Shown: in pieces, positions 26,633 through 56,272 of the stretch
How the letters are laid out: the number at the start of each line of letters is the position of its first letter
How positions within the stretch are numbered: the stretch's first letter is position 1
Program-made: the position numbers and the translations under genes
The notes under the pieces: generated by a model
Told to the model about the DNA's origin: nothing
Seen by the model: only the letters and a program-made list of their open reading frames with translations
Database searches by the model: none
IMG/VR virus record: IMGVR_UViG_3300025684_000010
Length of the DNA stretch: 64,000 nt
Strand: one strand, 5' to 3'
Source of the DNA: a virus

Positions 26633-27097
26633 TTAACCTTTTAAGAATTCCTTCTTAGTATTCTTAGCATTAATCTTTATTTTACGAGCCTTTTTACTTT
26701 CTGGAATTATTCGTTCCAATGCAATTGTTAAAAGACCGTTTTTGAAGTTAGCGTCAATTACTTCAATATCGTCCGCAAGAGTAAAACTCCTGGTGAACTT
26801 CTTGAAGGAAATACCACGGTGAACGTATTCGCCGCCGCCGTTAAAGTAATCTCCTGCTTCATCCCATGTGGAACGAACAGTTAAATTATCTTCTTTTACT
26901 TCGATTTCTACATCATCAATATCAAGACCTGCTAAAGCAAGATCAATAAAGAACTTTTCGCCTTTGTCGGTTCTGATATTATAAGGCGGGAAGCCTTGAG
27001 ATTGTTGTTGATGCTGTGGGAACTCCGCCAATCTGTCAAAGACTCTATCGAATCCAAGAGCAAAGGGGTGAAGTTGGTTTATATTTAATCCAGTCAT
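26633..27097 (-). CDS. hsp20: small heat-shock protein Hsp20 (IbpA-like)
   Basis: FPPYNI; LALAG; YVHRGIS.KKF.RSFTL; NGLLTI. Confidence 0.95.
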   Translation of the reverse strand: MTGLNINQLHPFALGFDRVFDRLAEFPQHQQQSQGFPPYNIRTDKGEKFFIDLALAGLDIDDVEIEVKEDNLTVRSTWDEAGDYFNGGGEYVHRGISFKKFTRSFTLADDIEVIDANFKNGLLTIALERIIPESKKARKIKINAKNTKKEFLKG

Positions 27098-27197: not shown

Positions 27198-27226
27198 ATT
27201 ATACAACAATCTTAGAAAAATGTCAA
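27198..27226 (-). promoter_or_regulatory. sigma70-type promoter upstream of hsp20 (plus late TATAAATA at 27186-27193)
   Basis: TTGACA-N17-TATAAT. Confidence 0.85.
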
Positions 27227-28099: not shown

Positions 28100-28259
28100 T
28101 CAGCTCCTCGTATTCTTTTACCATAACGTTAAAATGAGAACCACATTTATCACAAAGAGTAAGTTTAGTTTTACCATCTTCGGTATTCATTTCAACCACA
28201 TAAGATTTCTTTTTTGAAGTTTTGGTACCGCAGTTAAAACATTCAAGTTTTCCAATCAT
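28074..28259 (-). CDS. small zinc-ribbon protein
   Basis: CFNC...CDKC. Confidence 0.6.
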   Translation of the reverse strand: MIGKLECFNCGTKTSKKKSYVVEMNTEDGKTKLTLCDKCGSHFNVMVKEYEELIDERSNTI

Positions 28260-29212
28260 TATGAGTACTCACATTCAATCATTACTTCTGTTAGGAAGGC
28301 AACCATATTAATTTCTTGGTCAGCAACCAAACCGGACTTGTACATATAATCAGCCAATGTAACTATAAATCCTGCTTGTGATTGTAATGTGACTTTGCTT
28401 GACATCATATCATAGATACGACGAAACATTTCATTCATATCTTGATCTGAGTTCTTGGCAACCCATTTACGCATATCGGTAAATTGTTTTGCTTTGAGTA
28501 AACGAAATAGATCATCAATAGATTCCTGGGCAAGATTAACAAAGATACCTTCATCAATTTTACCAGATGCAGCATACGATTGTAATTCAGTTAATACTCT
28601 ACGGAAATCTGGAAAATGTTTCTCAATTACTTTAGCAACAACCTTAGGATCGTATTGAACTTCTTCTTGGTCAAGTATTGCCTTAACGCGTTTAAAGAAT
28701 TCCATTGCCATCTGTGGACGGTCAGCAGTATCAATAGAGAAGTCTATTTCAGACAACCTTGAACGTAATGGACTGATAATACGATTCTTGAAATTACAAG
28801 TAAAGATAAAGCCACAATTTGAACTGTATTCTTCAATAAAGTTACGAAGAGCAGGCTGAACGTTTGCTGCGTTCAAATAATCTGCTTCGTCAAAGATAAC
28901 ATACTTACGGCCTGTTCCTGTGAGAGAAACAGCGGAAGCGAAAGTAGAGATGTCGTATCGGAGGGTATCTATATTAACATTAAGAGAACCATTCTTTACG
29001 ATATAATCGCAACCTAGTTCTTCTAACATGGCTTTCGCAATTGTAGTTTTACCTACACCTGGACCACCAGTTAATAATAGATTTGGAACACTTCCGTCTG
29101 ATACGAACTTGCGAAAGGATTCTTTTGTCTTGCTTGGTAGAATAGTATCATCAACGATTTGTGGACGGTACTTCTCAACCCATAAGACTTCGTTTGATTT
29201 TGCATCAATCAT
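28259..29212 (-). CDS. gp44: clamp loader large subunit gp44
   Basis: WVEKYRP; GGPGVGKTT; DEADYL; SRC-like LRSRL. Confidence 0.96.
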   Translation of the reverse strand: MIDAKSNEVLWVEKYRPQIVDDTILPSKTKESFRKFVSDGSVPNLLLTGGPGVGKTTIAKAMLEELGCDYIVKNGSLNVNIDTLRYDISTFASAVSLTGTGRKYVIFDEADYLNAANVQPALRNFIEEYSSNCGFIFTCNFKNRIISPLRSRLSEIDFSIDTADRPQMAMEFFKRVKAILDQEEVQYDPKVVAKVIEKHFPDFRRVLTELQSYAASGKIDEGIFVNLAQESIDDLFRLLKAKQFTDMRKWVAKNSDQDMNEMFRRIYDMMSSKVTLQSQAGFIVTLADYMYKSGLVADQEINMVAFLTEVMIECEYS

Positions 29213-29300: not shown

Positions 29301-29576
29301 TTAATCTACGAGCTTACCAGCCAATTCGCCTTCAGCACCAGTATCAACATTTACGGCGCCTTCACCAACCCCTTCAGGTTGCTTTGGTCCTTTCTGTCTT
29401 AGGAATGCTTCGAGTTTATTTCTTAGCATACCGATACCAGCTAGTTCTTGCCCTTGGAATCCACCGCGAGTACTGACCACGTCAATGATCTGTAGTAGCG
29501 TTGAGATATCTCCAAGAGTAATTACGGCTTCTTGCTCTTGCTGTTGGCCTTGTTGCATTGCATCATTCATATTCAT
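29301..29576 (-). CDS. hypothetical protein
   Basis: ORF in operon between gp45 and gp44. Confidence 0.7.
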   Translation of the reverse strand: MNMNDAMQQGQQQEQEAVITLGDISTLLQIIDVVSTRGGFQGQELAGIGMLRNKLEAFLRQKGPKQPEGVGEGAVNVDTGAEGELAGKLVD

Positions 29577-30238
29577 TACCTTTTATTATAAGTCGACTTT
29601 GAATCAATTGCCACGTAATACGTGACGCCTTCGCCTTTAAATTGTGAGATACCTTTTGAACAAAGCGTAACCTCATAATCTATTGGCATTAGTTTCAAGT
29701 TATCAGTTTTAATGATAATCCTGAACTCATCGGCAGTTTCCCCAATTTCAACGCCAAAGTCATCTGCGTTGTCGTTGGCACTGTCGATTGCTTTCAGATA
29801 GCATTTGCCGCCTTCGCCTACAAACGCAATCTCCGAAAATTGTAATACCCCTGCCGCCTTCAATACTGAAGACAACGTATCTGCCGTTACATCCACAACA
29901 ACATCAGCAGTAGGAATATTAATTTCCTTTTCTGGTGGAGTGTGAATCATTGATAGATCTGCAAAGACATACTTGGTACGTCTTTTTCCTTCCGAGATAA
30001 TAAAGTATTTATCAAAAAACTCCACATCTGGATCATTATATAGAGATAAAATTGAAAGAAAGCGCGATAAGTCGTAAATACAAGCATCAGCTGGTATTTC
30101 TTGACCGATATTCGCAATCGCAATCAATGTTTTCTCTGGAGTTATAGTCTTAATAACTGAACCAGCTGACAACAAGATTGACTTGTTGATAGAGGTAAAG
30201 CTTTTTAGGACCGTCAAGGTTTCGTTAGAAAATTTCAT
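29576..30238 (-). CDS. gp45: sliding clamp gp45
   Basis: MKFSNETLTVLKSFTSINKSI; IYDLSRFLSIL. Confidence 0.95.
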   Translation of the reverse strand: MKFSNETLTVLKSFTSINKSILLSAGSVIKTITPEKTLIAIANIGQEIPADACIYDLSRFLSILSLYNDPDVEFFDKYFIISEGKRRTKYVFADLSMIHTPPEKEINIPTADVVVDVTADTLSSVLKAAGVLQFSEIAFVGEGGKCYLKAIDSANDNADDFGVEIGETADEFRIIIKTDNLKLMPIDYEVTLCSKGISQFKGEGVTYYVAIDSKSTYNKR

Positions 30239-30271: not shown

Positions 30272-30300
30272 ATTATAACAGGTTTATTTAGATTTGTCAA
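30272..30300 (-). promoter_or_regulatory. sigma70-type promoter upstream of gp45
   Basis: TTGACA-N17-TATAAT. Confidence 0.85.
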
Positions 30301-31153
30301 TAGGATTATAAGACTTTCTGTTAGATGTATTATCTGCAGTTGCCGTAACACCTAATTGACCGAGAGATCCCATGTCACCCTTAAAGATATAAGAACCAAC
30401 ATGGTTGATTTTCATCCAAGGACACATCCATACTGATAGACCAGCTTTACGAGCCATTCTACAGAAGAAGTAGTCTTCAGATAAGTACCTTCTAGATTCT
30501 GGGTCAATGACACAATCAAAGAAAGCGTGGATATCACGAGTACCGTCAAATTGTTCTGTCCTAACGTGATCTGGTCTATATGCCAATTCAGGATAAGCAT
30601 CTCGATATTTTTCTAATGCCTCTCTTGTAATTAGCATAAACCCAGTACCGCCTTCGGCAACTTCAACAGGTTCTGCGAGTTTAAATTGTTTTATATCTCC
30701 GACTGGATTAAAAACAAAATCTGATGTAAATTTTTCTAAGTCGAAAGGATTCTCTTTACCTACTCCATGTTGAGCAGCTGCAGCTACCTTTTCCCAAGCA
30801 ATTGTCTTCTTAGGATACGGTCCACATACAACATCGTATTTTTCTGGATCTGAAACTTGTAACGCAAGTAATGCTAACGCGTCACGTGGATCAAATCCAA
30901 TGTCTGCATCAATAAACAATAAATGAGTACAATCAGAACGAAGGAATTCATCTACGATATAGTTCCTTGCTCGTTGAATTAAACTTTCGTTGAATAGAAA
31001 GTAGTACTTCATTGGAATTTTGTGAGAACTACATAGCATACTTAAATCGTTAGTCGACTTAGTATAGATACCTGTACATTGACCACCATACATAGGTGTA
31101 CCAATAAAGAGTCTTTGTTTTTGTAGTTCTTCTGTCTTTACTTCTAACTTCAT
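30284..31153 (-). CDS. GT-A fold glycosyltransferase-like protein
   Basis: FIGTPMYGG, LIQRARN, LLFIDADI (DxD), GTGFMLI, LSEDYFFC. Confidence 0.7.
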   Translation of the reverse strand: MKLEVKTEELQKQRLFIGTPMYGGQCTGIYTKSTNDLSMLCSSHKIPMKYYFLFNESLIQRARNYIVDEFLRSDCTHLLFIDADIGFDPRDALALLALQVSDPEKYDVVCGPYPKKTIAWEKVAAAAQHGVGKENPFDLEKFTSDFVFNPVGDIKQFKLAEPVEVAEGGTGFMLITREALEKYRDAYPELAYRPDHVRTEQFDGTRDIHAFFDCVIDPESRRYLSEDYFFCRMARKAGLSVWMCPWMKINHVGSYIFKGDMGSLGQLGVTATADNTSNRKSYNPIDKSK

Positions 31154-31788
31154 ACTGTAATTTGCTCCATATCATTTTCTGCTCTAGTGATTGACTGTAA
31201 TCTTAATACATCAGCCAATATGTCCCATGCCGAATCGTGTGCTTTAAATACTGAATCCCACTTATCTTCGTTTGCACAAGGAGGGAATCCGTTCTTCTTT
31301 AAACCAAAATCAAACTTTGCATCAATAAAGGTTCTTGTATCTCTAACAGACCAATGCTTAAGGTGTGATTGTAGATGACCTACTTTACCTTGAGACTTAA
31401 AGAGTCTTTCAAGAATAACAGGATCAAAGGAATTAGATCTTGACCACCAATAGTTAATCTTTGGAGAATCAATCAAAAAGTCGGTAAACTGTTTCACAAA
31501 GTCTTCAACCGATAAGTCTGAACTTCTAGGAGCAATATTCTTTCTTACTTCTGAATCCTGTTTAGACCAAAAGTCGAGAGTGCCTTTATCGACTACCCAA
31601 CCATAGTTCTTTACTTGTTCTGCTACATCCAATTTAAATTTCTTTGCTTTGAATACATCACTTAAGTTATAGGGATTATCAGATGTAAACTTGTCCCACT
31701 GAAATACCATTACAGATACATCAATGACTGCGCAGTTATGAACATCTTGTCCCATTGTTTCGAAGTCGATGATTAAATCGTTTCTCAT
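31150..31788 (-). CDS. dexA: DEDDh 3'-5' exonuclease, DexA-like
   Basis: IIDFET; SFDPVIL; AHDSAWDI. Confidence 0.75.
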   Translation of the reverse strand: MRNDLIIDFETMGQDVHNCAVIDVSVMVFQWDKFTSDNPYNLSDVFKAKKFKLDVAEQVKNYGWVVDKGTLDFWSKQDSEVRKNIAPRSSDLSVEDFVKQFTDFLIDSPKINYWWSRSNSFDPVILERLFKSQGKVGHLQSHLKHWSVRDTRTFIDAKFDFGLKKNGFPPCANEDKWDSVFKAHDSAWDILADVLRLQSITRAENDMEQITV

Positions 31789-31813
31789 ATGTTTACCTTT
31801 AATTTAATATACT

Positions 31814-31842
31814 ATTATAACAAACTTTACTAGTCTTGTCAA
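31814..31842 (-). promoter_or_regulatory. sigma70-type promoter upstream of dexA
   Basis: TTGACA-N17-TATAAT. Confidence 0.85.
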
Positions 31843-31847
31843 TAGTT

Positions 31848-33074
31848 TTATGCAAAGAATTCATCTAAGTTTGGAGTTGTGTCTACACCATTCTTGTCAT
31901 GTTCCATTAATTGCTTATGGTTATTCTGTCGAAGATAGGTTGACTCTGACATATCGAGTTCGCCTGTAAGGAACTTAGCAATTTCACTATGGAGATCAGC
32001 AGATGTTGGTACAGGTACGTTTTGAGCGATATGATTCATTTTCTTCAAACCATGTAATAACTCAAAGTTCTCAGGAAAGCCCATCATATGTAAAGCTTCT
32101 CGAATTGTTAATGACCTTTCTTCAGTAGGATGCATTGTATCAACCATGTTACGACCAATTACTGCATTCATATATTCGCCAAAGACATGTACTGAACCAT
32201 CCCATACACCTTTACCATCAGCAAACTTCATAATGGCATGATCTGAGTATTTGGCGCCTTTTTCGTTTCCTGTTCTGTGGAACCATTCGTTGGCTTCTTT
32301 CATCCAACCTTTCTTACAAACATAATTCAGAGTTGTCTTAACGTCCTCTTCAACCATAAGCTCTCGAACATCACGATTTGTTTTTGTCTTAATGAAATTG
32401 TAATATGGTTCGTCAGGTACATGCTTATTAATAATCAAATCTTGATGTAATGCGTCAACAGGAATCTCTTGTAAGTATTCAGCAAAGTTCTTTCTTGGTT
32501 TATTATACCAATTCATTACAGGAGCAGAGTCAGACTTCCAGCCGATCGCAAAGGTCCTGTCGCGTCCTTGAGGAACTCCGTGGAATCTCGTCGATGTTTT
32601 ATATAGGGACAAAGAATAACCCCTCTCAGCGCAAATTTCGTACAGTCTATTTGCTACAGGACGACCTTTATTTGTAAACAATGCAGGAGCATTCTCAACA
32701 ATCACTACCTTTGCACCAAGTCTATCAATACCATCTTGAAAGACCATATACATAAATTCGTTCTTAGCACAACCTGCGCCTTTACTCTCTGTAGTTGTTC
32801 CTGTATTTAATTGAGATAGAGCAGCACATGGTGGAGTACCAGAGACCACATCAACTTGCGTTAGTCCACTGTTTTCTACTTCATCAAGTTTAATATAAGG
32901 AATATCGCGTCCCATTGTATTTTGTTGGTAGTTTACGTAATGACTATCGTTATCCTCAAACCCACCATAAGAGTAGATTGCTGTAGGTGGTTTACCAAAC
33001 GCTCTTTCTGCGCCTAGCATTTGTCCACCGATAAGCGGAATGAGTGGTGCCCATGTTATTTCTTTTTTGTTCAT
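31848..33074 (-). CDS. C5-cytosine DNA methyltransferase-fold protein with atypical motif I
   Basis: Motif IV GTPPC, motif VI ENAP, motif VIII QGRDR, motif IX RSLTIREALHMMGFP, motif X IAQNVP; motif I reads PLIGG rather than FxGxG. Confidence 0.85.
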   Translation of the reverse strand: MNKKEITWAPLIPLIGGQMLGAERAFGKPPTAIYSYGGFEDNDSHYVNYQQNTMGRDIPYIKLDEVENSGLTQVDVVSGTPPCAALSQLNTGTTTESKGAGCAKNEFMYMVFQDGIDRLGAKVVIVENAPALFTNKGRPVANRLYEICAERGYSLSLYKTSTRFHGVPQGRDRTFAIGWKSDSAPVMNWYNKPRKNFAEYLQEIPVDALHQDLIINKHVPDEPYYNFIKTKTNRDVRELMVEEDVKTTLNYVCKKGWMKEANEWFHRTGNEKGAKYSDHAIMKFADGKGVWDGSVHVFGEYMNAVIGRNMVDTMHPTEERSLTIREALHMMGFPENFELLHGLKKMNHIAQNVPVPTSADLHSEIAKFLTGELDMSESTYLRQNNHKQLMEHDKNGVDTTPNLDEFFA

Positions 33075-34312
33075 CCGAAAAAATCCTCAAGTGTTGCAGC
33101 TACTTTCTTATCAAATTGCGTTACATCTGGTGCAACATAATCATTATCAATCGCTGTCATAATTTTATTGTTTAAGAATGTACCATCGTAGTATTCAGGT
33201 TTACATATAAGTTTACGTAATCCTGTAATTACCGATTCATACTCCTGTTCATTATTTAATAACCTATTCATCCTTTCTTTAAATTCAGCAGGAGTTTTCG
33301 GTCTTAAAAAATCTGGTATTGGCAAATGCCCCTGTTCATCATAAGATGGATGCAAGAACGGTATCACACCAGCATGTACCATTTCAATATACTTTGAAGT
33401 TACCCAACCTTTTGCGATTGGAATAATAAAAGTAAATTTAACATTATTCATTTTAGCCATTACATCATCAAGATGAATAGATCCTTTGAACCTTGCGTCT
33501 GTTTCGGTATTAGGATGTTCCCATTTACCATAGATCTCAACATCATCATGTTCATCTAATACCCAATCCTTTAATAAATTGTATCTTGAAGGTTTAGCTT
33601 CGTTTAAGATAACCATAAAAGGAACGTTACGATTTAAGTTGAACTGTTCAGTATGTTGATAGTTAATACAGAAACAAGTTTCCATTCCTGCATATGTTGA
33701 AGGCATTGATCTGTCGTAACGATCTTGTTCTTCGTAAGATTTAATACTACTTACTTTATATTCATAATCGTATTGACCTAAAGATATATTTGGTAAATTG
33801 AATATGTCTCTTGATTGATTCATAACATACCGAGGATCGTTTACAATTTCAACATAATCAGGATTCTCTTCGTTAATCCAAATCGCAATTGGTGATGTAT
33901 AATTCTTTGTCATATCAATCACAGAAGCTTTAAGTGTACGATCTTTAACTTGTTCAATTTTGCCTGGGATCGTAACTGTACCAACTTGACCAACCATTAA
34001 AACAGTATAGTCTAATTTCATTGACCTACTCTTAAAGTAATCAATCACGTGATTAAAGAATCTATCTTCATCGTTGTTTTTAATACCTTTCCAAATATCA
34101 ATTACATTATCAAAGGGAAACAACTCCAATGATTCAGACTCATTTAGAGTACTGAAATCAGATCGTCCGATAATGTAAAATGTTTTGTCTGGGTTATTAT
34201 TTGCGAGTGCAATAAGTACTGTAGACGGCTCGTTGTCTCCACCAATAGGAGAGAAGCGATTCCGCTTAAACTTGACCGATTTACCGATCTTTCCAAATCC
34301 AATGTTTTTCAT
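33071..34312 (-). CDS. GT-B DNA glycosyltransferase, T4 beta-glucosyltransferase-like
   Basis: NDPR (cf. BGT TDIR catalytic Asp, from memory); FKGSIHLDDV..K..FII..WVTSKYIE..DEQGH parallels the BGT C-terminal domain. Confidence 0.6.
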   Translation of the reverse strand: MKNIGFGKIGKSVKFKRNRFSPIGGDNEPSTVLIALANNNPDKTFYIIGRSDFSTLNESESLELFPFDNVIDIWKGIKNNDEDRFFNHVIDYFKSRSMKLDYTVLMVGQVGTVTIPGKIEQVKDRTLKASVIDMTKNYTSPIAIWINEENPDYVEIVNDPRYVMNQSRDIFNLPNISLGQYDYEYKVSSIKSYEEQDRYDRSMPSTYAGMETCFCINYQHTEQFNLNRNVPFMVILNEAKPSRYNLLKDWVLDEHDDVEIYGKWEHPNTETDARFKGSIHLDDVMAKMNNVKFTFIIPIAKGWVTSKYIEMVHAGVIPFLHPSYDEQGHLPIPDFLRPKTPAEFKERMNRLLNNEQEYESVITGLRKLICKPEYYDGTFLNNKIMTAIDNDYVAPDVTQFDKKVAATLEDFFG

Positions 34313-34339
34313 AATATAAAGTTTGCCGTTCTGTTAAAT

Positions 34340-34774
34340 TTATTTATCCGAATTGACCACACGTTGTCTGAGCTCTGACGAACTGAAAGAATGCCTTCTG
34401 CGATTATAATGAACAGGACATAAACCTTTTCCAGTATGCTCAACATCTTTGTATTCTTCACCAACAATTCTAATATCAGGATTGATAGTCAAAATCATAT
34501 CAACCAATTCTTGTTCAGTTGAGAAAGGTATTACCTCGTCTACATATTTACAAGAAGATAACTGTATGTATCTTTCAAATGGAGTCTGAACTGGTTTGTT
34601 CTTTGCATTAGGACGATCCACGGTTGGGTCAATCAATAATCCAACAATTAAATAATCGCACAACGTCTTTGCTTCTTGTAGCATTACAATATGACCTGCA
34701 TGAAACAGATCAAACGTTGAACATGTAAATCCGACCTTACAATCTGCCGGTAATTTTTTCCTATCTAGAAACAT
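34340..34774 (-). CDS. cytidylyltransferase-family nucleotidyltransferase (TagD / RfaE domain II-like)
   Basis: GFTCSTFDLFHAGHIVML (HIGH motif); YVDEVIP; SSSELR. Confidence 0.9.
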   Translation of the reverse strand: MFLDRKKLPADCKVGFTCSTFDLFHAGHIVMLQEAKTLCDYLIVGLLIDPTVDRPNAKNKPVQTPFERYIQLSSCKYVDEVIPFSTEQELVDMILTINPDIRIVGEEYKDVEHTGKGLCPVHYNRRRHSFSSSELRQRVVNSDK

Positions 34775-35711
34775 TTTCTTCCCTCAAAATTTCTTTAACT
34801 CGTTTAGCATACACCGTATAGAGTGGTGTTTTATCAGTTGGTAGATAATGTATATATGCAGGGAAGGTTTTAAAATTTAACACTGCGTCGAGTTTTAGAA
34901 CCGTAGTCCAAATACGTACGTCACTACCAAACCTGCTTACCTCAAATCCATTCTCTGATAACCATTTATAATAAATTGCATATATGTTTTGTTCTATACA
35001 CCAAAACTTTCCACCCATAGATCGGTTATTACCTGGAGTTCCATACTTTGGTATAACAGAACCACCATAACCTTTTTTGTTTTTATACTTGTGTACACCT
35101 TCCATAATAAGAACATACATATCTTTACAAGCTGCTCTTTTAAAGAACTCAAGATAATGATCGTTTCTTGTATGTACAACCTGACCAGAATTCATACTAA
35201 AATAAGGTTTGGTTCTCATTGTAGTAATATCAACCTTATCTTTATAAATTGGATCAAGTACTGCTTCTACAAACTTACCCATAACACCTAATGCAGATTC
35301 GTTATAGAATACATAAGGTTCAAAGAAATAGTGGTCAACAGGCTTGAGTAATAACGTATCGTCATCAATCATCATTGCTCTGTTGATGTTTAATATTTCA
35401 TGTGCATAAGGAAAGACCAACCATTTGATTGCCACTCCATATACATCAAGTATTCGTAACAACCACTCTTCATCAAAGAAATGCTTTACTTTATCAATCA
35501 CATCAGTTACATAGTGAATTGTTATCTTATCTGATATACTTTCTACGTTATAGGTAGTATGCCGATCATCTAAGATAACATGCAAATTCATATATGTATC
35601 TTCGTCGTATACATTATACATCTCAAGAAGGTTTTCAATCCTTGAGATTTTATTGCTTACTATGAATATATCATTCTGCATAGTCGATAATATCCAATAG
35701 ATCGTTAACAC
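34761..35711 (-). CDS. GT-A glycosyltransferase, GT8-like
   Basis: MIDDDT (DxD), YFSMNSGQV, EQNIY, YIHY...K. Confidence 0.55.
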   Translation of the reverse strand: MLTIYWILSTMQNDIFIVSNKISRIENLLEMYNVYDEDTYMNLHVILDDRHTTYNVESISDKITIHYVTDVIDKVKHFFDEEWLLRILDVYGVAIKWLVFPYAHEILNINRAMMIDDDTLLLKPVDHYFFEPYVFYNESALGVMGKFVEAVLDPIYKDKVDITTMRTKPYFSMNSGQVVHTRNDHYLEFFKRAACKDMYVLIMEGVHKYKNKKGYGGSVIPKYGTPGNNRSMGGKFWCIEQNIYAIYYKWLSENGFEVSRFGSDVRIWTTVLKLDAVLNFKTFPAYIHYLPTDKTPLYTVYAKRVKEILREENVSR

Positions 35712-36717
35712 ACTGAATGATAAAGTCTTTATCTGGGTGGTACTTGTATACTCGAATCACTTCGGCAGCTGTTAGCGTTAACAACTCATACTTATCTATC
35801 CAATGATTATATGCCAACATTGTATTAATCACAAGATCTTGAGTATGACTATCATAACGATTGATTATTAAACTTGCGATAAACTTTGCTATGTCAAGTT
35901 CACGACAACCAAATACATTAGGAATAGGATCAATTAAGTACATTGTGTCACTGTCATTAAACAGCATGTTCTTAATACCAAAATCTCCATGACAATAACC
36001 ATACTCTAATTCAATAGAAGATAGTCTTTCAACAACATCATTAAAAGGTTCAAGGTTAGCATTAGTACAGTGATTTACGATTCTTGCTATATAATCATCA
36101 AAGGTTAGAAACTTTGTTTCGATTGGCATATTACCAAAAGCATCAAGAGCTTCTTGAATTAACGCCAATGCTTTATAAGGACTGTCTTCGAAGAAATTAG
36201 GATCGTTTTCAATATAATCCATTGTAATCGTATCACCAACCACTCGATGAATCTCAGGTGTACATACTGCCCAACCGGTTTTCTCATACCAAAGTGCGGC
36301 TTCATGAGCATTCTTTGCTGTCTTGTGAACAAACTTACCGTCGGTGTAAATGTCAGAGCCTGATAGGCCACCTTCCAATTCACGAATATCAGCCTCTACA
36401 AAATCTTCAGGTGTAATACCTTTGTCGTCAATGTAATATGCTGCGAGTGGTTTATTAAAACTGAGTGCATGGTACTTTACGTTATTCTTTTGTAACCACG
36501 ATTCAATTTGAGGTCCATACTTATCTGCAGCTTCTTCTCTACTCCTACAAGAAATAGATCCACGAGCTGTATATATGTCGATAGTCCAACCTTGATTATA
36601 TAGTTCATTACACTTTTCAATTAGAGCAACGTTGGGTTTTGCGTTATCCCAATCTCTATTTGATGTAAATGCTAGAGTGTCATCAAAGTCAAGGACTATT
36701 CTTTTATGTGACGACAT
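35671..36717 (-). CDS. HAD phosphatase fused to APH/choline-kinase-like phosphotransferase
   Basis: N-terminal LDFDDTL, YTARG, KP..YYIDDK; C-terminal CHGDFGIKN, LIDP. Confidence 0.82.
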   Translation of the reverse strand: MSSHKRIVLDFDDTLAFTSNRDWDNAKPNVALIEKCNELYNQGWTIDIYTARGSISCRSREEAADKYGPQIESWLQKNNVKYHALSFNKPLAAYYIDDKGITPEDFVEADIRELEGGLSGSDIYTDGKFVHKTAKNAHEAALWYEKTGWAVCTPEIHRVVGDTITMDYIENDPNFFEDSPYKALALIQEALDAFGNMPIETKFLTFDDYIARIVNHCTNANLEPFNDVVERLSSIELEYGYCHGDFGIKNMLFNDSDTMYLIDPIPNVFGCRELDIAKFIASLIINRYDSHTQDLVINTMLAYNHWIDKYELLTLTAAEVIRVYKYHPDKDFIIQCVNDLLDIIDYAE

Positions 36718-36719
36718 AA

Positions 36720-36923
36720 TTAGTCCTTCTTAAAATAAATGCTACGAGTTAGTCCACCAAAGAGGTAGGTGAAGTATAAGAAGAATGGAGCCGCAATTAC
36801 GAGTCGTATTGTATCAGAAGTTGCACCAACCAATTCACCGAGACCGATGAGAGCTGAGATTAATCCAATAATTAACACGACGGTTGCTACGCCAAATCCA
36901 AAGTCTTTCAATTTTTCTTTCAT
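36720..36923 (-). CDS. small two-helix membrane protein
   Basis: Hydrophobic ORF behind a promoter, with SD. Confidence 0.65.
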   Translation of the reverse strand: MKEKLKDFGFGVATVVLIIGLISALIGLGELVGATSDTIRLVIAAPFFLYFTYLFGGLTRSIYFKKD

Positions 36924-36950
36924 AATATAGTTTCCTTGTTAATATTTACT

Positions 36951-36979
36951 ATTATAACAAATTTTTGTGCAGTTGTCAA
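36951..36979 (-). promoter_or_regulatory. sigma70-type promoter for the glycosylation/MTase operon
   Basis: TTGACA-N17-TATAAT. Confidence 0.85.
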
Positions 36980-36983
36980 TAGT

Positions 36984-37436
36984 TTATTTAGCCAATCTGA
37001 AATCTGTTTCAAATTTACATCCTGACTCAATAAAGAGTTGTTTTGACTTATCATACGATTCTATCCATCTTTGAGGAACATCTTCTGCAGCCATTACAAT
37101 TCTATTTATGCCAACTTGGATAATTCCTTTTGCACATTCATTACAGACAGGTAAACCCCACACGTATATTGTTGTATCTTTTAACGATACTCCATGAAAG
37201 GAGGCATTGAAGATTGCATTCATTTCAGCATGCACAACGAGTTCGTATTTCAGTTCTCTATTGTTATACTTATCTGCTGAATCATCAATACCTTTAGGAA
37301 AGCCATTATAACCAGTTGCTAGGATACGTTTATCTTTTACAATAACCGCTCCTATTTGTTTACTTGGATCTTTTGACCAACTTGAAACTTCTCGGGCAAC
37401 TCGTATAAATCTTTGATCCCATTTATTTTCCTGCAT
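36984..37436 (-). CDS. cd: dCMP deaminase
   Basis: ATGYNGFP; HAEMNA; PVCNEC. Confidence 0.92.
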   Translation of the reverse strand: MQENKWDQRFIRVAREVSSWSKDPSKQIGAVIVKDKRILATGYNGFPKGIDDSADKYNNRELKYELVVHAEMNAIFNASFHGVSLKDTTIYVWGLPVCNECAKGIIQVGINRIVMAAEDVPQRWIESYDKSKQLFIESGCKFETDFRLAK

Positions 37437-38091
37437 TAATTAACGCCTCAATAAATTCAAAATGTCTTTCATATACATGAAGATTAGTTGCAGTCCAAAT
37501 CAAGTCACCGACCTCAACTTCGAGATCATAAGCAAGTTGACCTTGAACAAACTTTGCCCAAGCAACATCATTGTTATAACCAAAGACAGCATCGTTAGAT
37601 CTCATTACATAATGGGATATAAGTTTACCATCTCGAATCATAAACGTATTCGCAAATGTACACATAAAGTCAGACATACCATCACGGTTGAAATCAAGAT
37701 GCATACTTGGACGATTATAGATCATTGCAGCTCTACGGCTGTTTGGATTAGCTTTCAACTCTCGAAGTACATGTTTATATTGATTACCATTCTCTTCAGA
37801 GTAAATACACCAACCATAATTAGAATTGATCTTACCTTCGTTAGAAGATATATCTTTCCAAATCTGTGGTGTCTCTCCAGGAATATCATCAACATATAGT
37901 GATTCAGACATATACCACTCAAGTTCACGCTCGATGTACTTATATGCTGGTGTTCTAATCAACCAATTTTCATCAGCAACAAATGATTCACCAAGAACTT
38001 CAATAGTCTTAGCGCCTGACTTGTCAATGACATAATCTTCTGCAAGATACTTGTCAATTAGGTCTGCTCGGATATCATTTGTTGTTTTCAT
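37423..38091 (-). CDS. gp42: dCMP hydroxymethylase (T4 gp42-like)
   Basis: Long blocks match recalled T4 gp42: KTIE, SFVADE, YIERELEWY, DIPGETP, INSNYGW, DGMSDFMCT, MRSND.VFG..ND.AW (Asp at the cytosine-specificity position), LHVY.RHF. Confidence 0.9.
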   Translation of the reverse strand: MKTTNDIRADLIDKYLAEDYVIDKSGAKTIEVLGESFVADENWLIRTPAYKYIERELEWYMSESLYVDDIPGETPQIWKDISSNEGKINSNYGWCIYSEENGNQYKHVLRELKANPNSRRAAMIYNRPSMHLDFNRDGMSDFMCTFANTFMIRDGKLISHYVMRSNDAVFGYNNDVAWAKFVQGQLAYDLEVEVGDLIWTATNLHVYERHFEFIEALINAGK

Positions 38092-38345
38092 TAGATGGAT
38101 TCCATTAACGCTTCAATATCAGATACTTCTGCAATTAGATCAGAAACATTTTGATTATGGAAAGCTCTTGCGGTTTTCCTTAGGATTGATTTTGGGATCT
38201 GAACTTCATCAGCCAAAGCATTGATTGCTTCTTTCTGAAAATCACGTTCTGATTCCATTCGAGTAAACGAATTACTCATTTCTTCCATACAACCACGGAT
38301 TCGTTTTTTGTCTGCGTCACTTGACGGTATCATTATATTGCTCAT
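38091..38345 (-). CDS. conserved phage hypothetical protein (helical)
   Basis: ORF overlapping neighbours in the operon. Confidence 0.7.
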   Translation of the reverse strand: MSNIMIPSSDADKKRIRGCMEEMSNSFTRMESERDFQKEAINALADEVQIPKSILRKTARAFHNQNVSDLIAEVSDIEALMESI

Positions 38346-38689
38346 TATTTAGTACTCCTGTTAAATACATCTTTAGTTGAATCCTGACCTTTAATACCTT
38401 GACGACAGTAAGAGACAAAGAAACTTGAATAGTTAATTAAATCTTTTGCTGAATCTTCAAGGGACTCAAAGTTAGGATCGTAATCATCTGACTGCATTGC
38501 TTCCATTACTGATTTCATACGTAGCATTTTTGCATGCATAATATCATGAATGGTTGTAATTCCGTTAGGATAGTAGTCAGCTTGTTGAACAGTCGAGTTT
38601 GGATTTTGATAATCTCTCGACTTTTTCAATTGAAGGTCAACACACTCTTGTAGTACATCGACCGAAACTGGGTTGGTTGGTTTTGTCAT
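38345..38689 (-). CDS. nucleotide-modification-associated domain protein (NMAD1/DUF1599-like, all-alpha)
   Basis: LQLKKSRDY; KMLR; EDSAKDLINYSSF. Confidence 0.6.
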   Translation of the reverse strand: MTKPTNPVSVDVLQECVDLQLKKSRDYQNPNSTVQQADYYPNGITTIHDIMHAKMLRMKSVMEAMQSDDYDPNFESLEDSAKDLINYSSFFVSYCRQGIKGQDSTKDVFNRSTK

Positions 38690-38712
38690 ATAGACTCCAT
38701 AATAAAAAATAT

Positions 38713-38741
38713 ATTATATCAAAGATTCTTGATAATGTCAA
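38713..38741 (-). promoter_or_regulatory. sigma70-type promoter for the gp42/cd operon
   Basis: TTGACA-N17-TATAAT. Confidence 0.85.
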
Positions 38742-38757
38742 TGGAAATTTCGTATAC

Positions 38758-39303
38758 TCATCGGTTTTTTTCCATAGCAACGTCTTTGAAGTTGTTATGT
38801 TCTATTATACCATACTTTTCTACAGATGTAAATAGTTTTTTCTTACTATTGTAACGAATCCATAAAGAACGATTAACTTTTGGTTTGCCTTCCTTTGTTG
38901 TCATCATAGTTTTTACAACAGCTTTTGGTATAAAGAAGTAATGTAATTTTTCTGTGTCAGGGTTAACAACAACCGCTCGGATAGCACCTTTCTTTAAGAC
39001 ACCGTCATGAGATCTTACGCTTGAGAGTTCGGCTGAACTGCTCTTGGCCGATATGTGTAATGTACCCGTTTTGGATTCAGATTCATCTGTGAAGTCTTCG
39101 TGGATACCGTCGTTGAATTCGTATAGACCATTTGAGCAGAGAGCGAACGATTGTTCTATTAAATGTTCTAGGTTAAAATCCGCAGGCCGTTGTAGAACAG
39201 CCTCACGGAAAGGACTTTCTTTATAGACTGGGTGGTTTTCAACAACGCAGTCTGCCATCAGTTTCAATTTAAGGTTTGTGTTGACCTTTTCATAATATGC
39301 CAT
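38758..39303 (-). CDS. putative PD-(D/E)xK restriction-endonuclease-like protein
   Basis: EDFTDESESKTG (D...E-x-K); own promoter. Confidence 0.4.
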   Translation of the reverse strand: MAYYEKVNTNLKLKLMADCVVENHPVYKESPFREAVLQRPADFNLEHLIEQSFALCSNGLYEFNDGIHEDFTDESESKTGTLHISAKSSSAELSSVRSHDGVLKKGAIRAVVVNPDTEKLHYFFIPKAVVKTMMTTKEGKPKVNRSLWIRYNSKKKLFTSVEKYGIIEHNNFKDVAMEKNR

Positions 39304-39335
39304 AATGTAAGTCCATTAATTTAAATTATAGATAT

Positions 39336-39364
39336 ATTATAATCTATATCATAAAGAATGTCAA
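39336..39364 (-). promoter_or_regulatory. sigma70-type promoter
   Basis: TTGACA-N17-TATAAT. Confidence 0.85.
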
Positions 39365-39381
39365 TGGTTTATTTCAGTTAT

Positions 39382-39468
39382 TTAGAGAACTTTTCTCCAA
39401 ACGTTCTGAATTCTGTTCCTTTTCATCATATGATGGAACTTTTTGTATTGTTTTGCTATGTATTTCAT
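39382..39468 (-). CDS. small basic peptide (28 aa)
   Basis: MKYIAKQYKKFHHMMKRNRIQNVWRKVL with SD AGGAAGGA; not in the ORF track. Confidence 0.45.
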   Translation of the reverse strand: MKYIAKQYKKFHHMMKRNRIQNVWRKVL

Positions 39469-39549
39469 GTTTCCTTCCTGTTGCCTACATGTTACAGTAA
39501 TGTAACATATAAATTTATATATACAAGAACTACTAACAAAATCAATAAT

Positions 39550-39777
39550 TTATACAACTTTTGGTGGAACTGGTAATAGAAACGTTCTTACTGTTGCCAA
39601 TTTATCTTCGGCTTCGGCAAGTTTTGCGACTTCAGCATCAAGAGTTTCAACTGTACCAGGATGTTCTGCTACTCCAACTCCATTCTCTAAAAATACCGCA
39701 ATGTTTGCTGTATGTTCTGCAATGGCTGCTTCATACCTTGAAACTAACGCATTAACTAATATTTCTCTAATTGCCAT
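39550..39777 (-). CDS. conserved marine-phage hypothetical protein
   Basis: Start reassigned to MAIRE (SD AAGGAG); ENGVGVAEH motif. Confidence 0.7.
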   Translation of the reverse strand: MAIREILVNALVSRYEAAIAEHTANIAVFLENGVGVAEHPGTVETLDAEVAKLAEAEDKLATVRTFLLPVPPKVV

Positions 39778-39778
39778 T

Positions 39779-40192
39779 TTACTCTCCTTTAAGTTTTGGT
39801 AGGATACCATGATTGCCTTCATGAGATGGAGCCGTCCATCCTTCAGGTTTCATCAAGTCAGGTAATCCTAGTGGGTTTGGCCGTCCTTCCTTTACTCCAG
39901 GTTCTTTGGCCATGTTTGCTTCGAGAACTGCGTCCCAAGCTTTATAAGGATCGACTCCGAAGGCATCAAGAGTACCGATTGCCACTACACAAAGGTCAAC
40001 TAAACCATCAACGATTTCTTCGGAGTCGATATCTTTTTGAGCTGTTCTTGTTTCTTCGAGTTCTTCTTGTAGGAAGTTAACTCTAAATTCCAAAAACGCT
40101 TTCAACTTTTCCACATCTGCGTTTGCTACCCAGTTGTGTGTTTTATATTTTGATTGCATATCAACAATATCTTTTACCCAATCCTTACTCAT
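39779..40192 (-). CDS. MazG-like all-alpha NTP pyrophosphohydrolase (candidate dCTPase/dUTPase)
   Basis: EELEE..EEIVDGLVDL..VLEANMAK..KPEGW. Confidence 0.8.
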   Translation of the reverse strand: MSKDWVKDIVDMQSKYKTHNWVANADVEKLKAFLEFRVNFLQEELEETRTAQKDIDSEEIVDGLVDLCVVAIGTLDAFGVDPYKAWDAVLEANMAKEPGVKEGRPNPLGLPDLMKPEGWTAPSHEGNHGILPKLKGE

Positions 40193-40753: not shown

Positions 40754-43312
40754 TTAACTAAAAAAGTCATCGAGAGTATTAACCTTCTCCGCTGACCATC
40801 CAACCGCATCAAGGATTGACTGTATGGGACTCAAGAATACTTTGTCAAACTGAAGTTCAGTATCAACGTAATCGTGTAGTCCAAGTTGTTTTGGCAATAA
40901 GCCAGGAACCGATATTGCGTTCTCACGAATAGGATTAGGTACCTTTAAATATAATAACTTGACTTTGTCTCCACCTTGGATAGTTTCAAACTTCTTGTCA
41001 AGTCCTTTCTCTTTAAGGAAGTGGTTATACATTAAGGATCCACGAACATGCATTGGAGTACCTTTTCTGTATATAGATCCTTTGTCTTGGTACTTCTTAA
41101 GTTCATTAACACCCGAGGTCTTTGCGATGGCCATAGGATCTAATGTACGAAACAGTTCTTTGAAATCTTTAATGAAACCTTGAGTTGTTTCTTCATCAGT
41201 ATTCATAATGATCTCAAAACATTGCTTGAGTTTATCACGACAGATCTCAGGAGTCGAAGATCTTACTGATTCTAATCCTGTTACCGATACCTTAGGAGTA
41301 TCGTAGTGAACGCCTTCTGAGTTCAATGTATTTAGAATATATCGTTTCTTAGCAACAAAGATTGCTCGGTTAGTAATCTTTTCACGTTTCATTACCATTG
41401 CGTTACGATATGTACCTAGATCAGCAGCAAGCTTTTCATAACCATCTTCGATGACTTGTTCAATTTTAGTTGAACAGATTCTATCAAGGAACTCTTCACC
41501 TTTATCTTTATCAATATCAGTCGTACCAAACACTTCTTTAATCAGAGGACCGAAGTCAACATAGATAGAGTCGGTATCAATATAGATGATATAGTCATGG
41601 TCAGTTGTACCTAGAGTTCTATTTAAATAATCATTAACCGACTTTTCAGCATAACGAATACCTAACTGACCGCTTGTTGTAATTGCCTCGGCCATTTCAT
41701 TAATATAGTATAAGAAATATTTGTTAGCAGTAGCACCATACAAACTGTTCATGGCAATCTTAATTGACATTTGTGAATTGTGTAATTGATTGATCTCACG
41801 CTTTAGGCGTTTGAGTTCTCTTGGATCTGTCTCAACCTCAAACTGTTGTTCAGCAAGGATCATCTGCTTTTTGATAACAGAACGGTTATTATAGTATTCA
41901 TCAATAATTTCAGGAATGATTCCTTGCTTCTTATTTGAAAAACAAACACCGTTAGCAGCCACTGATACATTAGGACGATCATTCTTATATTCACGATTCA
42001 GTACCATGTCTTGAGTCACGTATTCACGATCATTGGGCATATAGGTTTCTGGTGACATGTTATATTGTAACATTAAGTGAGGGTATAGAGAGTTAAGGTC
42101 AAAAGATACAACCCAAGGATGCATTCCAACTTTAGGATCTTTAACATAACCACCAACAAGATCACCAGCAACCATTCCTGGTCCACCTTTAAGTGGAGGA
42201 ACAATTTTATCTTTCATTAGTTTACGATATATGGTTGATTCCCATATACCAACTGTACCAAACGCATCACCGTAGTTAACACCACCGTCATATGCAACTG
42301 TCATAACCAACGCAAGCAATCCTGTCTCTTCTTCGAGACGAGCAATCAGTTGAGTATCTTTTAAATTATAGTCAAGATACAATTGAGGATTCTCTTCCCA
42401 TAATCCAGTTAACGAACCATATTCAGAGTAATCAATTTTCTTTTCACCAAGGACAGCGTAAGCAATATGATCTAACTTATACGATTCTTGAGGACCGTAC
42501 TTATAACCAAACTTTTTAAAGCAATCCATATAATCGAGAACAACAACACCCATAATACGATATGTTGATGCAACCTTACCAAAGATCTCTCGAGAGGTTT
42601 GTTTTAATGATTTGTGTGGAGATAAACGCTTTGTGGTTTCTTCTCCAAGTAACGCGGTGATACGAGTTACGATGTATTGAATATCAAAGTATTCAACGTT
42701 CCAACCAGTTACAACATCAGGATAATCAGTTGTCCATAGTTTCATAAAGTATTGAAGTAAAGCACGTTCACCATCAATACCATCAAACAATACGAACTCA
42801 ATCTTATCTTGAGGAATATCAGTAACAGTTTTAGTCTTGTCATAATCTTTGCGACCAAGTACATAATATACATCATCTCGAGAACTATGATAAGCAATAG
42901 ACGTAATCGGTTTATCGGCAGTGTCCATATTTGGATAACCATCACTGATGTCAACCTCAATATCAAACGATACGATATTGACCTGGCTTACGTCATATGT
43001 AATCTTACCAGGATACTCTTCTTGAATAAACTGAGTTACATAATTTGTTGAACCAAACGTCTTCATACCGTGAACACCTTTGTATTCTTCGATGAAGTTC
43101 TTTGCTTCTCGCATATCACCAAACTTGTGTGGAGATACAGGTAAGTTACCTTCTAACGAATGGAAACCTTCTGCACCAGACTTTGGAGTATGAATGTATA
43201 GAGTAGGCTGAAATGGAACGCGGTACGAGAAACGTTTACCATTTTCGTAACCTCGATGTAAAATATTGTTTCCGTATCTTTCAACGGATGTATAGAATTT
43301 AGTCAATGCCAT
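40754..43312 (-). CDS. gp43: family B DNA polymerase gp43 (unsplit)
   Basis: SFDIE; SFDLNSLYP; KIAMNSLYG; YIDTDS; KKRY. Confidence 0.98.
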   Translation of the reverse strand: MALTKFYTSVERYGNNILHRGYENGKRFSYRVPFQPTLYIHTPKSGAEGFHSLEGNLPVSPHKFGDMREAKNFIEEYKGVHGMKTFGSTNYVTQFIQEEYPGKITYDVSQVNIVSFDIEVDISDGYPNMDTADKPITSIAYHSSRDDVYYVLGRKDYDKTKTVTDIPQDKIEFVLFDGIDGERALLQYFMKLWTTDYPDVVTGWNVEYFDIQYIVTRITALLGEETTKRLSPHKSLKQTSREIFGKVASTYRIMGVVVLDYMDCFKKFGYKYGPQESYKLDHIAYAVLGEKKIDYSEYGSLTGLWEENPQLYLDYNLKDTQLIARLEEETGLLALVMTVAYDGGVNYGDAFGTVGIWESTIYRKLMKDKIVPPLKGGPGMVAGDLVGGYVKDPKVGMHPWVVSFDLNSLYPHLMLQYNMSPETYMPNDREYVTQDMVLNREYKNDRPNVSVAANGVCFSNKKQGIIPEIIDEYYNNRSVIKKQMILAEQQFEVETDPRELKRLKREINQLHNSQMSIKIAMNSLYGATANKYFLYYINEMAEAITTSGQLGIRYAEKSVNDYLNRTLGTTDHDYIIYIDTDSIYVDFGPLIKEVFGTTDIDKDKGEEFLDRICSTKIEQVIEDGYEKLAADLGTYRNAMVMKREKITNRAIFVAKKRYILNTLNSEGVHYDTPKVSVTGLESVRSSTPEICRDKLKQCFEIIMNTDEETTQGFIKDFKELFRTLDPMAIAKTSGVNELKKYQDKGSIYRKGTPMHVRGSLMYNHFLKEKGLDKKFETIQGGDKVKLLYLKVPNPIRENAISVPGLLPKQLGLHDYVDTELQFDKVFLSPIQSILDAVGWSAEKVNTLDDFFS

Positions 43313-43337: not shown

Positions 43338-43366
43338 ATTATATACTAGTTGACGGAGAATGTCAA
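43338..43366 (-). promoter_or_regulatory. sigma70-type promoter upstream of gp43
   Basis: TTGACA-N17-TATAAT. Confidence 0.85.
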
Positions 43367-56243: not shown

Positions 56244-56272
56244 ATTATAACACAGTTTGCTATCGATGTCAA
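56244..56272 (-). promoter_or_regulatory. sigma70-type promoter upstream of gp39
   Basis: TTGACA-N17-TATAAT. Confidence 0.85.

Follow-up and report, generated by a model that had tools for sequence, protein, structure and literature searches.

A predicted two-stage cytosine hypermodification system with a phage-made sugar donor in an uncultured marine T4-like myophage

The 64,000 nt of the IMG/VR virus record IMGVR_UViG_3300025684_000010 analysed here (the window) come from an uncultured, divergent marine T4-like myophage and carry an island at positions 30284-40192, entirely on the minus strand. We read this island as a two-stage cytosine hypermodification system that builds on 5-hydroxymethylcytosine (hmC) with a donor made by the phage, and assign this reading a probability of about 70%. 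In the first stage, before replication, a gp42-type enzyme would convert dCMP to 5-hydroxymethyl-dCMP (5hmdCMP), and a dCMP deaminase and a MazG-type pyrophosphohydrolase would shape the pyrimidine pool in presumptive specific roles. In the second stage, on DNA, an early six-gene operon would make an activated sugar by moving phosphate: a kinase is predicted to place a phosphate on the anomeric carbon of a sugar phosphate taken from the host (a pentose 5-phosphate or heptose 7-phosphate is most likely), a fused AfhF-like HAD domain would take off the distal phosphate, and a HIGH-type nucleotidyltransferase would form the nucleoside diphosphate (NDP)-sugar. A BGT-like glycosyltransferase of the GT-B fold could then move the sugar onto hmC in new DNA, probably riding the gp45 clamp by a polymerase-like tail, and in strains having the gene a GT8-like enzyme would add a second sugar. 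A C5-methyltransferase-like (MTase-like) protein would be a co-translated, constant partner with a putative clamp tail of its own. The analysis itself shows homologies and folds, diagnostic residues, the structure of the operon and the variation of cassettes; the substrates, order of steps, clamp binding and final adduct are inferred.

The base on which such a system would act is indicated by the thymidylate synthase (TS) homologue of the island, which carries RSND...G..ND and a catalytic cysteine (Cys146) invariant in the alignment. The TS homologues of RB69 and DLP3 make 5-hydroxy-dCMP and are marked by D169N (E. coli ThyA numbering), whereas N177D brings a preference for dCMP and an acidic residue at L143 gives access to water (PMC13326640, NAR 2026). 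Both L143D (MSDFMCT) and N177D (GYNND) are found in the window enzyme, as in T4 gp42, and Asp169 is retained, the motif reading RSND in the window enzyme and T4 gp42 versus RSQN in RB69 gp48. Because D169 is kept, both other substitutions are in place and identity is 51% to T4 gp42 but only 24% to RB69 gp48, we assign the protein, by its sequence, as a true 5hmdCMP synthase. A 5-hydroxy-dCMP synthase of the gp48 type was considered and rejected on the same low identity and the missing D169N signature. The assignment agrees with a first-pass annotation of this DNA, which had proposed gp42-like hmC synthesis with an Asp at the specificity position.

The genes listed in that annotation are all present, as judged by the open reading frame (ORF) list, family searches and folds, and 15 minus-strand ORFs fill the island (Table 1). 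The island had also been described as one co-oriented block; its orientation is indeed uniform, but perfect promoters divide it into at least four transcription units. TTGACA-N17-TATAAT sites without mismatch occur 18 times in the window versus 0.01 expected and, read as sigma-70 consensus sequences, form a very uniform early promoter set of the phage. Most have TGT ahead of the -10 hexamer; those within the island occupy gaps ahead of genes and lie on the coding strand, and examples elsewhere in the window lie at 27198-27226, 43338-43366 and 56244-56272. Unit 1 holds the genes for the Nmad1-like and DsbA-like proteins, gp42 and the deaminase, and unit 3 those for an exonuclease and a 289-aa protein. 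Between them, unit 2 encodes a 67-aa membrane protein, the HAD-kinase, the GT8-like protein, the nucleotidyltransferase, the GT-B and the MTase-like protein. Its frames touch or overlap one another (an ATGA holds both the stop of the GT-B gene and the start of the MTase-like gene), and these six genes are bracketed by the perfect promoters of units 2 and 3. The 67-aa protein is kept at 50-94% identity in many relatives.

Within this operon, the proteins that would activate the sugar resemble parts of a recently described pathway. AfhE phosphorylates arabinose-5-phosphate at C1, AfhF strips the 5-phosphate, and the N-terminal domain of AfhE yields UDP-arabinose (PMC13326640); a literature search on AfhE/AfhF found this as the sole relevant paper. 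The HAD domain of the window fusion matches TIGR01689 (6.7e-16), PDB 9iqw (1.1e-13), PDB 1xpj (1.9e-10) and phrog_1238 (1.6e-22), is 38% identical to RB69 gp51 and has intact DxDxT and DD motifs. In sequence it is clearly an AfhF-type phosphatase and a homologue of both AfhF and RB69 gp51. The kinase domain has HGDxxxxN...IDP motifs and CotS/APH-like matches. Since the HAD and kinase activities act in succession, their fusion fits a phosphate-moving logic. The nucleotidyltransferase has intact HxGH and RxxxxSSS motifs and matches rfaE domain II (HldE; 1.4e-21) and TagD (6e-14) and, among PDB entries, ethanolamine-phosphate cytidylyltransferase (ECT; 4.5e-22) and TagD (3e-14). It belongs to a different class from the AfhE domain, which suggests that the nucleotide carrier, and perhaps the sugar too, differ from those of the Afh system. 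The window lacks the AfhE architecture itself, a MurU/LicC-type nucleotidyltransferase fused to an APH-type kinase: its kinase is joined to the HAD domain instead, and its HIGH-motif nucleotidyltransferase is a separate protein. In tblastn searches of the window with the RB69 isomerase, AfhE halves, nucleotide kinase and glycosyltransferases, plus T4 and Acinetobacter-phage BGT, only the TS homologue and the HAD domain matched. Overall, the gp51-homologous HAD domain, a kinase resembling the C-terminal half of AfhE and a motif-intact nucleotidyltransferase support the earlier proposal that the phage has a sugar-activation route of its own.

The GT-B is the predicted DNA glycosyltransferase. 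Single-sequence PDB searches with this protein, the 316-aa GT8-like protein and the 289-aa protein returned nothing, so that profiles and folds were required. In VIA-align comparisons of the AlphaFold2 model, T4 BGT was the best solved structure (Z 22-23, root mean square deviation 3.6-4.0, 312-318 residues), followed by the next family at Z 19.7, T4 AGT at 18.6 and the HY126 DNA glycosyltransferase at 17.8. BGT was also the sole match of the GT-B family profile in the PDB, and hhalign aligned the two over the donor-binding domain with 95% probability (E 3e-8). BGT residues R195, R269 and E272 have counterparts in R243, K307 and E310, of which K307 is invariant in 54 sequences, R243 nearly so, and E310 invariant in closer family alignments. 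The invariant D159-P-R161, in the N-terminal domain and outside the reach of the profile alignments, resembles D100-I-R102 of BGT, where Asp100 is the catalytic base. The family is broad (615 clusters at 50% identity), and the window protein differs from T4 BGT in its 10-13% identity over structural alignments, in being ~60 residues longer and in its polymerase-like tail.

The donor used by this enzyme is best approached through its relatives. Synteny extends, with cassette variation, across 60 IMG/VR loci that carry the GT-B at 53-99% identity beside the same neighbours. In more distant T4-like relatives, some of which have a second GT-B, the HAD-kinase and the HIGH enzyme give way to an AfhF-like HAD that stands free and a complete AfhE-like fusion; the AfhE architecture is present in loci L057, L060 and L105 and in phage XG4. 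On backbones of 90-98% identity, an alternative cassette combines another HAD with a SIS isomerase, a ribulose-phosphate 3-epimerase and an AfhE-like fusion, which points to donors derived from pentose phosphates. The GT-B follows the cassette, at 52-63% identity with AfhE/AfhF cassettes versus 29% with the SIS/epimerase cassette, and the MTase-like protein stays at 67-70% in SIS/epimerase loci. As read from these sequences, the sugar-activation genes are exchanged as a cassette while gp42 and the MTase-like gene stay put. A distant T4-like clade has gp42, deaminase, GT-B, HAD-kinase, GT8-like, nucleotidyltransferase and MTase-like genes reordered beside uvsX. Beyond the T4-like group, in Pseudoalteromonas phage vB_Psh_XG4 and in Enterococcus Denvervirus phages, a GT-B homologue sits beside an AfhF-like HAD, an AfhE-like fusion and a TS homologue of the dCMP type. 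Our main argument rests on this pattern: the GT-B covaries with the cassette of sugar genes, and the hydroxymethylase accompanies both, so the GT-B would use a phage-made donor on hmC-DNA.

Further variation was seen at single loci. In L060, a KdsA/DAHP-synthase-family gene (PF00793, 5.5e-37; L060:112-687), truncated where the contig ends, lies directly upstream of the gp42 homologue; it may provide a sugar acid of eight carbons or a related one. Contigs from two RNA-library runs (X17, X18) link 37403 to 34455 through seven other letters. This junction suggests that strains co-occur in which the segment from the deaminase to the beginning of the nucleotidyltransferase has been exchanged or rearranged. 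A 253-aa protein (P0010) with a GT8-like N-terminal half and a SIS-like C-terminal half was discarded as evidence that the GT8-like protein has a SIS domain; its 1.3-kb contig has a depth of ~1 and was treated as a recombinant or chimera.

The covariation of the GT-B with the cassette bears on a rival account, in which the DNA carries ordinary glucosyl-hmC, the GT-B uses host UDP-glucose like T4 BGT, and the HAD-kinase, nucleotidyltransferase and GT8-like protein serve something else, for example alteration of the host envelope or glycosylation of a phage protein. T4 BGT being the nearest solved structure fits this account, as does the GT8 fold, typical of lipopolysaccharide and protein glycosylation, and a phosphomannomutase and two FkbM-type methyltransferases in the window would suit non-DNA glycan metabolism. 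Nonetheless, we consider it unlikely, because the sugar-activation genes share a promoter-to-promoter operon with the GT-B, their frames overlapping, because the GT-B shifts with cassette type on near-identical backbones, and because AfhF/AfhE-like genes are paired with this GT-B family beside dCMP-type TS homologues in unrelated phages. The phosphomannomutase is of eukaryotic type and follows a DUF6552 gene; in a distant clade (L067-L069), a DUF6552 gene forms part of the hypermodification island, where the deaminase and the GT-B flank it. This hints at a second link to sugar-1-phosphate supply. The FkbM genes flank a gp19-like tail-tube gene, and FkbM-family enzymes often methylate sugars.

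The C-terminal tails may connect the GT-B to replication. T4 and RB69 gp43 hold the gp45 clamp via a C-terminal peptide. Among 140 ORFs, the pattern L-D/E-D/E-F-F ends only the polymerase (NTLDDFFS), the GT-B (ATLEDFFG) and the MTase-like protein (PNLDEFFA), two further matches being short spurious ORFs that were excluded. T4-like relatives keep the tail on each of the three proteins, and the XG4 and Enterococcus homologues lack it. Judged by this resemblance, it probably binds the gp45 sliding clamp, and its presence on polymerase, GT-B and MTase-like protein suggests that the two modification enzymes work on DNA at the replisome.

Several features weigh against a two-stage system with a phage-made donor. 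The link between the kinase domain and the C-terminal kinase half of AfhE-like proteins is weak at the sequence level (hhalign E 1e-4, probability 56%). Searches for an arabinose-5-phosphate isomerase of the SIS family gave nothing, either by tblastn of the window with RB69 gp55 or as a Pfam SIS match in the scanned ORFs; with no sugar-phosphate isomerase in the window, the substrate must come from the host. The MazG-type protein is a candidate dCTP-clearing enzyme, but complete replacement of cytosine is not assured, as it is unlike T4 gp56: BLAST with gp56 found no similarity to it or to the 114-aa ORF, and we dropped the idea that MazG is the gp56 orthologue. A C5-methyltransferase-like enzyme is hard to square with fully hmC-substituted DNA. 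Finally, the best solved relatives of the nucleotidyltransferase, ethanolamine-phosphate and glycerol-3-phosphate cytidylyltransferases, use phospho-alcohols, which would also allow a CDP-activated polyol or amino-alcohol phosphate (Kennedy/TagD-like) as the donor, with a GT-B-fold enzyme moving a phospho-alcohol or alcohol to hmC. The choline-kinase/APH fold of the kinase agrees with such a donor. We nevertheless hold it to be very unlikely. A kinase-fused phosphatase is sensible only for a substrate with two phosphorylatable positions, as in the Afh and ADP-heptose routes, and the HAD domain is of the AfhF type. Moreover, the nucleotidyltransferase scores equally well or better against the heptose-1-phosphate adenylyltransferase domain, the SIS and ribulose-phosphate epimerase genes of sister cassettes indicate pentose-phosphate chemistry, and the GT-B is nearest BGT, not TagF.

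The first-pass annotation further proposed several glycosyltransferases and a multi-unit adduct. At least one DNA glycosyltransferase nearest T4 BGT is supported, and the models bear out both its BGT-like GT-B and its GT8-like GT-A; several glycosyltransferases building such an adduct are only partly supported, as the GT8-like gene is only accessory and the 289-aa ORF lies outside the sugar operon. For the GT8-like model, Foldseek retrieved glycogenin, the xyloside xylosyltransferase XXYLT1 and UGGT at 1e-7 with probability 1.00, and DDD, NSGQ and HYLPxDK (H278) are invariant, corresponding to the DxD, NxG and distal His of GT8. Its gene is absent from many otherwise collinear loci, and this patchiness marks it as accessory. 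The 289-aa protein, earlier taken for a second GT-A-like ORF, is a real ORF with sub-threshold glycosyltransferase matches, but its family is widespread (at least 8000 homologues, including those of Caulobacter phage Cr30, Sinorhizobium phiM-type phages, Pelagibacter podophages and cyanophage ACG-2014f) and not tied to the pathway. With this broad distribution, and transcribed with the exonuclease in a separate unit, it was set aside as a third DNA glycosyltransferase.

The MTase-like protein combines conserved catalytic features with an unusual motif I. C83, E127-N128, Q169/R171/R173 (QxRxR) and motif IX (HP...R..T..E) are invariant, and motifs IV, VI, VIII and IX are recognisable. The FxGxG of the S-adenosylmethionine (SAM)-binding motif I is missing: the protein reads I-P-L-I-G-G, its Leu falling opposite the first Gly of 3g7u, and L-I-G-G does not vary among family members. 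Canonical and family motifs are, respectively, FxGxG and xPLIGG (first Gly to Leu) for motif I, PCQ and PC(A/S) for motif IV, ENV and ENAP for motif VI, and GN and QNxP for motif X; these deviations hold across a family that diverges to 31-35% identity and numbers at least 1945 clusters at 90% identity. Its relatives in cultured phages (E <=1e-10) all adjoin a dCMP-modifying TS homologue (XG4 and S-TIM5-type cyanophages, with N177D), aside from Bacillus phage G, a weak match of 23% identity whose neighbourhood was not looked at. In cyanophage S-TIM54 (Aurunvirus; L115:6105-10194), a homologue of 31% identity has IPLVGG and PPCA motifs and no clamp tail, and lies ~2 kb from a 'ThyA' with RSND, N177D and Cys at position 143, a dCMP-modifying enzyme.

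Our leading guess for the MTase-like protein is C5 modification of cytosines that escaped replacement. It may be an ordinary SAM-dependent C5-cytosine DNA methyltransferase on the clamp that methylates unreplaced cytosine, its odd motifs being subfamily variation, a possibility that we rate somewhat below even odds. The match to PF00145 is above the gathering threshold, the catalytic Cys, the Glu of ENx, QxRxR and motif IX are invariant, and PC followed by Ser instead of Gln is seen in 8yf3, a solved 'cytosine-specific methyltransferase'. With no clear gp56-type dCTPase, some dC may be incorporated, and in S-TIM5-type cyanophages the homologue is again found ~2 kb from the N177D TS homologue. 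Set against this, the first Gly of FxGxG is Leu throughout the family and motif X has QN, not GN; adjacency of the cultured relatives to a dCMP-modifying TS homologue, the weak phage G match aside, is unexpected for an enzyme that needs a free C5. Alternatively, the protein may not be a methyltransferase at all: having kept the covalent C6-attack machinery and lost canonical SAM binding, it would act on hmC or glycosyl-hmC in nascent DNA, for example by 5-methylene activation so that the substituent is exchanged or extended. We regard this as improbable, but if true it would be a new enzymatic DNA-modification chemistry and would explain why three phage lineages repeatedly link the gene to dCMP-modifying TS homologues.

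The likely two-stage system, with its phage-made donor, can be set beside characterised pathways. As in the T4 hmC pathway, a gp42 orthologue, identical at the specificity residues, lies next to a dCMP deaminase; the GT-B is nearest T4 BGT, and both systems are placed between gp43 and gp45 in the replication region. In contrast to T4, the window lacks a recognisable gp56 homologue, and its phage has donor-synthesis genes of its own, rather than host UDP-glucose alone, and a C5-MTase-like partner. The ADP-heptose pathway (HldE, GmhB) is similar in the match of the nucleotidyltransferase to HldE domain II and in a HAD phosphatase acting on a bisphosphate; it differs in that the window kinase has an APH fold, not PfkB, GmhA is missing and all scores are far under equivalog cut-offs. 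Phage hypermodification clusters of methyltransferase, 5mYOX/TET and glycosyltransferase genes were reportedly described by Burke in 2021. Such clusters (Pyle 2023, bioRxiv 10.1101/2023.12.21.572611) likewise have a C5-methyltransferase-family gene beside DNA glycosyltransferases acting on hmC, but the scanned window ORFs include no dioxygenase. Unlike in those clusters, gp42 makes hmC before replication, so the MTase-like protein is not needed for the hydroxymethyl handle. Metavirome surveys list neighbourhoods of ThyS, GT-B, APH and methyltransferase genes, with ThyS-linked GT-B contigs that have APH, methyltransferase and clamp genes nearby (bioRxiv 10.1101/2023.12.21.572611).

The closest parallel is the arabinosyl-5-hydroxycytosine (5hoC) pathway. 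That the gene combination resembles no characterised phage, as first thought, is outdated, since experiments of 2025-26 on RB69, DLP3 and HY126 demonstrated the logic of kinase, phosphatase, nucleotidyltransferase and GT-B on 5-hydroxycytosine (PMC13326640). Both systems would use a C1 kinase, a HAD acting on the distal phosphate, a nucleotidyltransferase and a GT-B on hydroxylated cytosine; the window HAD is an AfhF/gp51 homologue, and kinase fold and motifs are the same. In the window, however, the base would be hmC (D169), not 5hoC (D169N), the HAD is fused to the kinase and not free, a HIGH-motif enzyme replaces the MurU/LicC-type domain, there is no isomerase gene, and the GT-B is nearer to BGT than to the HY126 enzyme. 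New relative to the 2025-26 pathways are thus hmC in place of 5hoC, the HAD-kinase fusion, the HIGH-type nucleotidyltransferase, cassette swapping, clamp-type tails and a constant C5-MTase-fold partner.

The marine T4-like origin follows from the polymerase, whose best identity to cultured phages is only ~45%, with cyanomyoviruses nearest, together with the presence of the same stretch in marine metagenomes of many studies. Megablast with the island as query returned nothing from cultured phages. The window (G+C ~36%) also encodes T4-type gp43, gp45 and gp44, along with RegA, UvsW, UvsY, gp46/47 and a topoisomerase. Contigs of four metatranscriptome libraries span nearly the whole island, and one library matches it at >=99% identity in pieces of 2.4 and 4.1 kb; this is presence in RNA libraries, not proof of transcription.

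Family searches agree with the earlier assignments of the dCMP deaminase, MazG, HxGH nucleotidyltransferase, HAD-kinase, C5-MTase fold and DexA-like exonuclease. The proposed NMAD1-like protein does match DUF1599/Nmad1, but only below threshold; it also matches the C-terminal half of phrog_18404, the N-terminal half of which matches the MazG ORF. The 181-aa ORF occurs in only one of the 60 related loci, and contigs of two runs join 38755 to 39319, skipping it; it is a strain-specific, rare insertion and probably not a member of the pathway. Near the islands of relatives, a cytochrome-c-domain ORF, not present in the window, lies between the MazG gene and the gp42 unit of a close relative, and a ribosomal protein S21 gene adjoins the island in a distant T4-like clade. 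Elsewhere in the window are genes for a peptide deformylase and an Hsp20 protein.

Table 1. Features of the island, the wider window and related loci (positions refer to the window unless a locus is named; pLDDT, predicted local distance difference test score; GT, glycosyltransferase)
Feature	Position	Strand	Evidence or remark
Hsp20	26633-27097	minus	PF00011 3.2e-15
gp44	28259-29212		T4-type replication gene
gp45 clamp	29576-30238		T4-type replication gene
Perfect promoter	30272-30300	minus	
289-aa possible GT-A-like protein (phrog_1574)	30284-31153	minus	sub-threshold GT matches, E 0.015-0.05; one Atlas lead
DEDD 3'-5' exonuclease (DexA-like), neighbour gene	31150-31788	minus	PF16473 6e-20; phrog_255 1e-34
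Promoter of exonuclease unit	31814-31842	minus	perfect; next one downstream of 36951-36979
C5-cytosine-methyltransferase-fold protein	31848-33074	minus	PF00145 2.1e-24, 87 bits vs cut-off 22
BGT-like GT-B, predicted DNA glycosyltransferase, 413 aa	33071-34312	minus	AlphaFold2 fold, pLDDT 95.8
HIGH-motif class-I nucleotidyltransferase (cytidylyl/adenylyl-transferase family)	34340-34774	minus	PF01467 2.8e-15
GT8-like retaining GT-A, 316-aa ORF	34761-35711 (start probably M11 at 35681)	minus	no family match; AlphaFold2 pLDDT 88.7 with 18 homologues
HAD-kinase fusion, 348 aa	35671-36717	minus	HAD, residues 1-110; APH/choline-kinase-fold kinase, 120-348
67-aa hydrophobic small membrane protein, first gene of sugar operon	36720-36923	minus	two hydrophobic stretches
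Sigma-70 consensus early promoter, unit 2 (six-gene sugar operon)	36951-36979	minus	perfect match
dCMP deaminase	36984-37436	minus	PF00383 5e-22; phrog_174 1e-45; 14-nt overlap with gp42 gene
gp42-type dCMP hydroxymethylase (predicted 5hmdCMP synthase)	37423-38091	minus	PF00303 1.3e-21
DsbA-like late-transcription regulator, bystander T4 core-type gene	38091-38345	minus	phrog_639 5.8e-13; PF11126 0.0012
Small helical protein, weakly Nmad1 (DUF1599)-like	38345-38689	minus	PF07659 E 0.024, below threshold
Sigma-70 consensus early promoter, unit 1	38713-38741	minus	12/12 match
181-aa ORF	38758-39303	minus	no family match
MazG-type NTP pyrophosphohydrolase	39779-40192	minus	PF01503 1.6e-9; phrog_671 5e-21
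gp43 polymerase	40754-43312		T4-type replication gene
Peptide deformylase	46142-46720	minus	PF01327 2.6e-38
FkbM-family methyltransferase	50482-51093	minus	PF05050
FkbM-family methyltransferase	51650-52417	minus	PF05050
DUF6552 protein	58813-59208	plus	
Eukaryotic-type phosphomannomutase	59205-59912	plus	PF03332 1.6e-28
SIS/epimerase cassette, example	L103:1025-4312		
SIS/epimerase cassette, example	L108:2528-5794		
Cytochrome-c-domain ORF, close relative	L021:4358-4828		PF00034 1.9e-9
Ribosomal protein S21, distant T4-like clade	L067:12580-12837		PF01165

Overall, the sugar-activation logic newly found for 5-hydroxycytosine phages would here be coupled to classical hmC with rearranged parts. 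Exchange of the cassette between near-identical genomes, in phages that are abundant in the sea, is what an arms race against modification-dependent nucleases of the host would be expected to produce. The system also raises the ideas of clamp-tethered DNA-modifying enzymes and of a role for a C5-MTase fold in DNA whose C5 is already occupied, and new DNA glycosyltransferases with their donors would be useful tools for labelling hmC.

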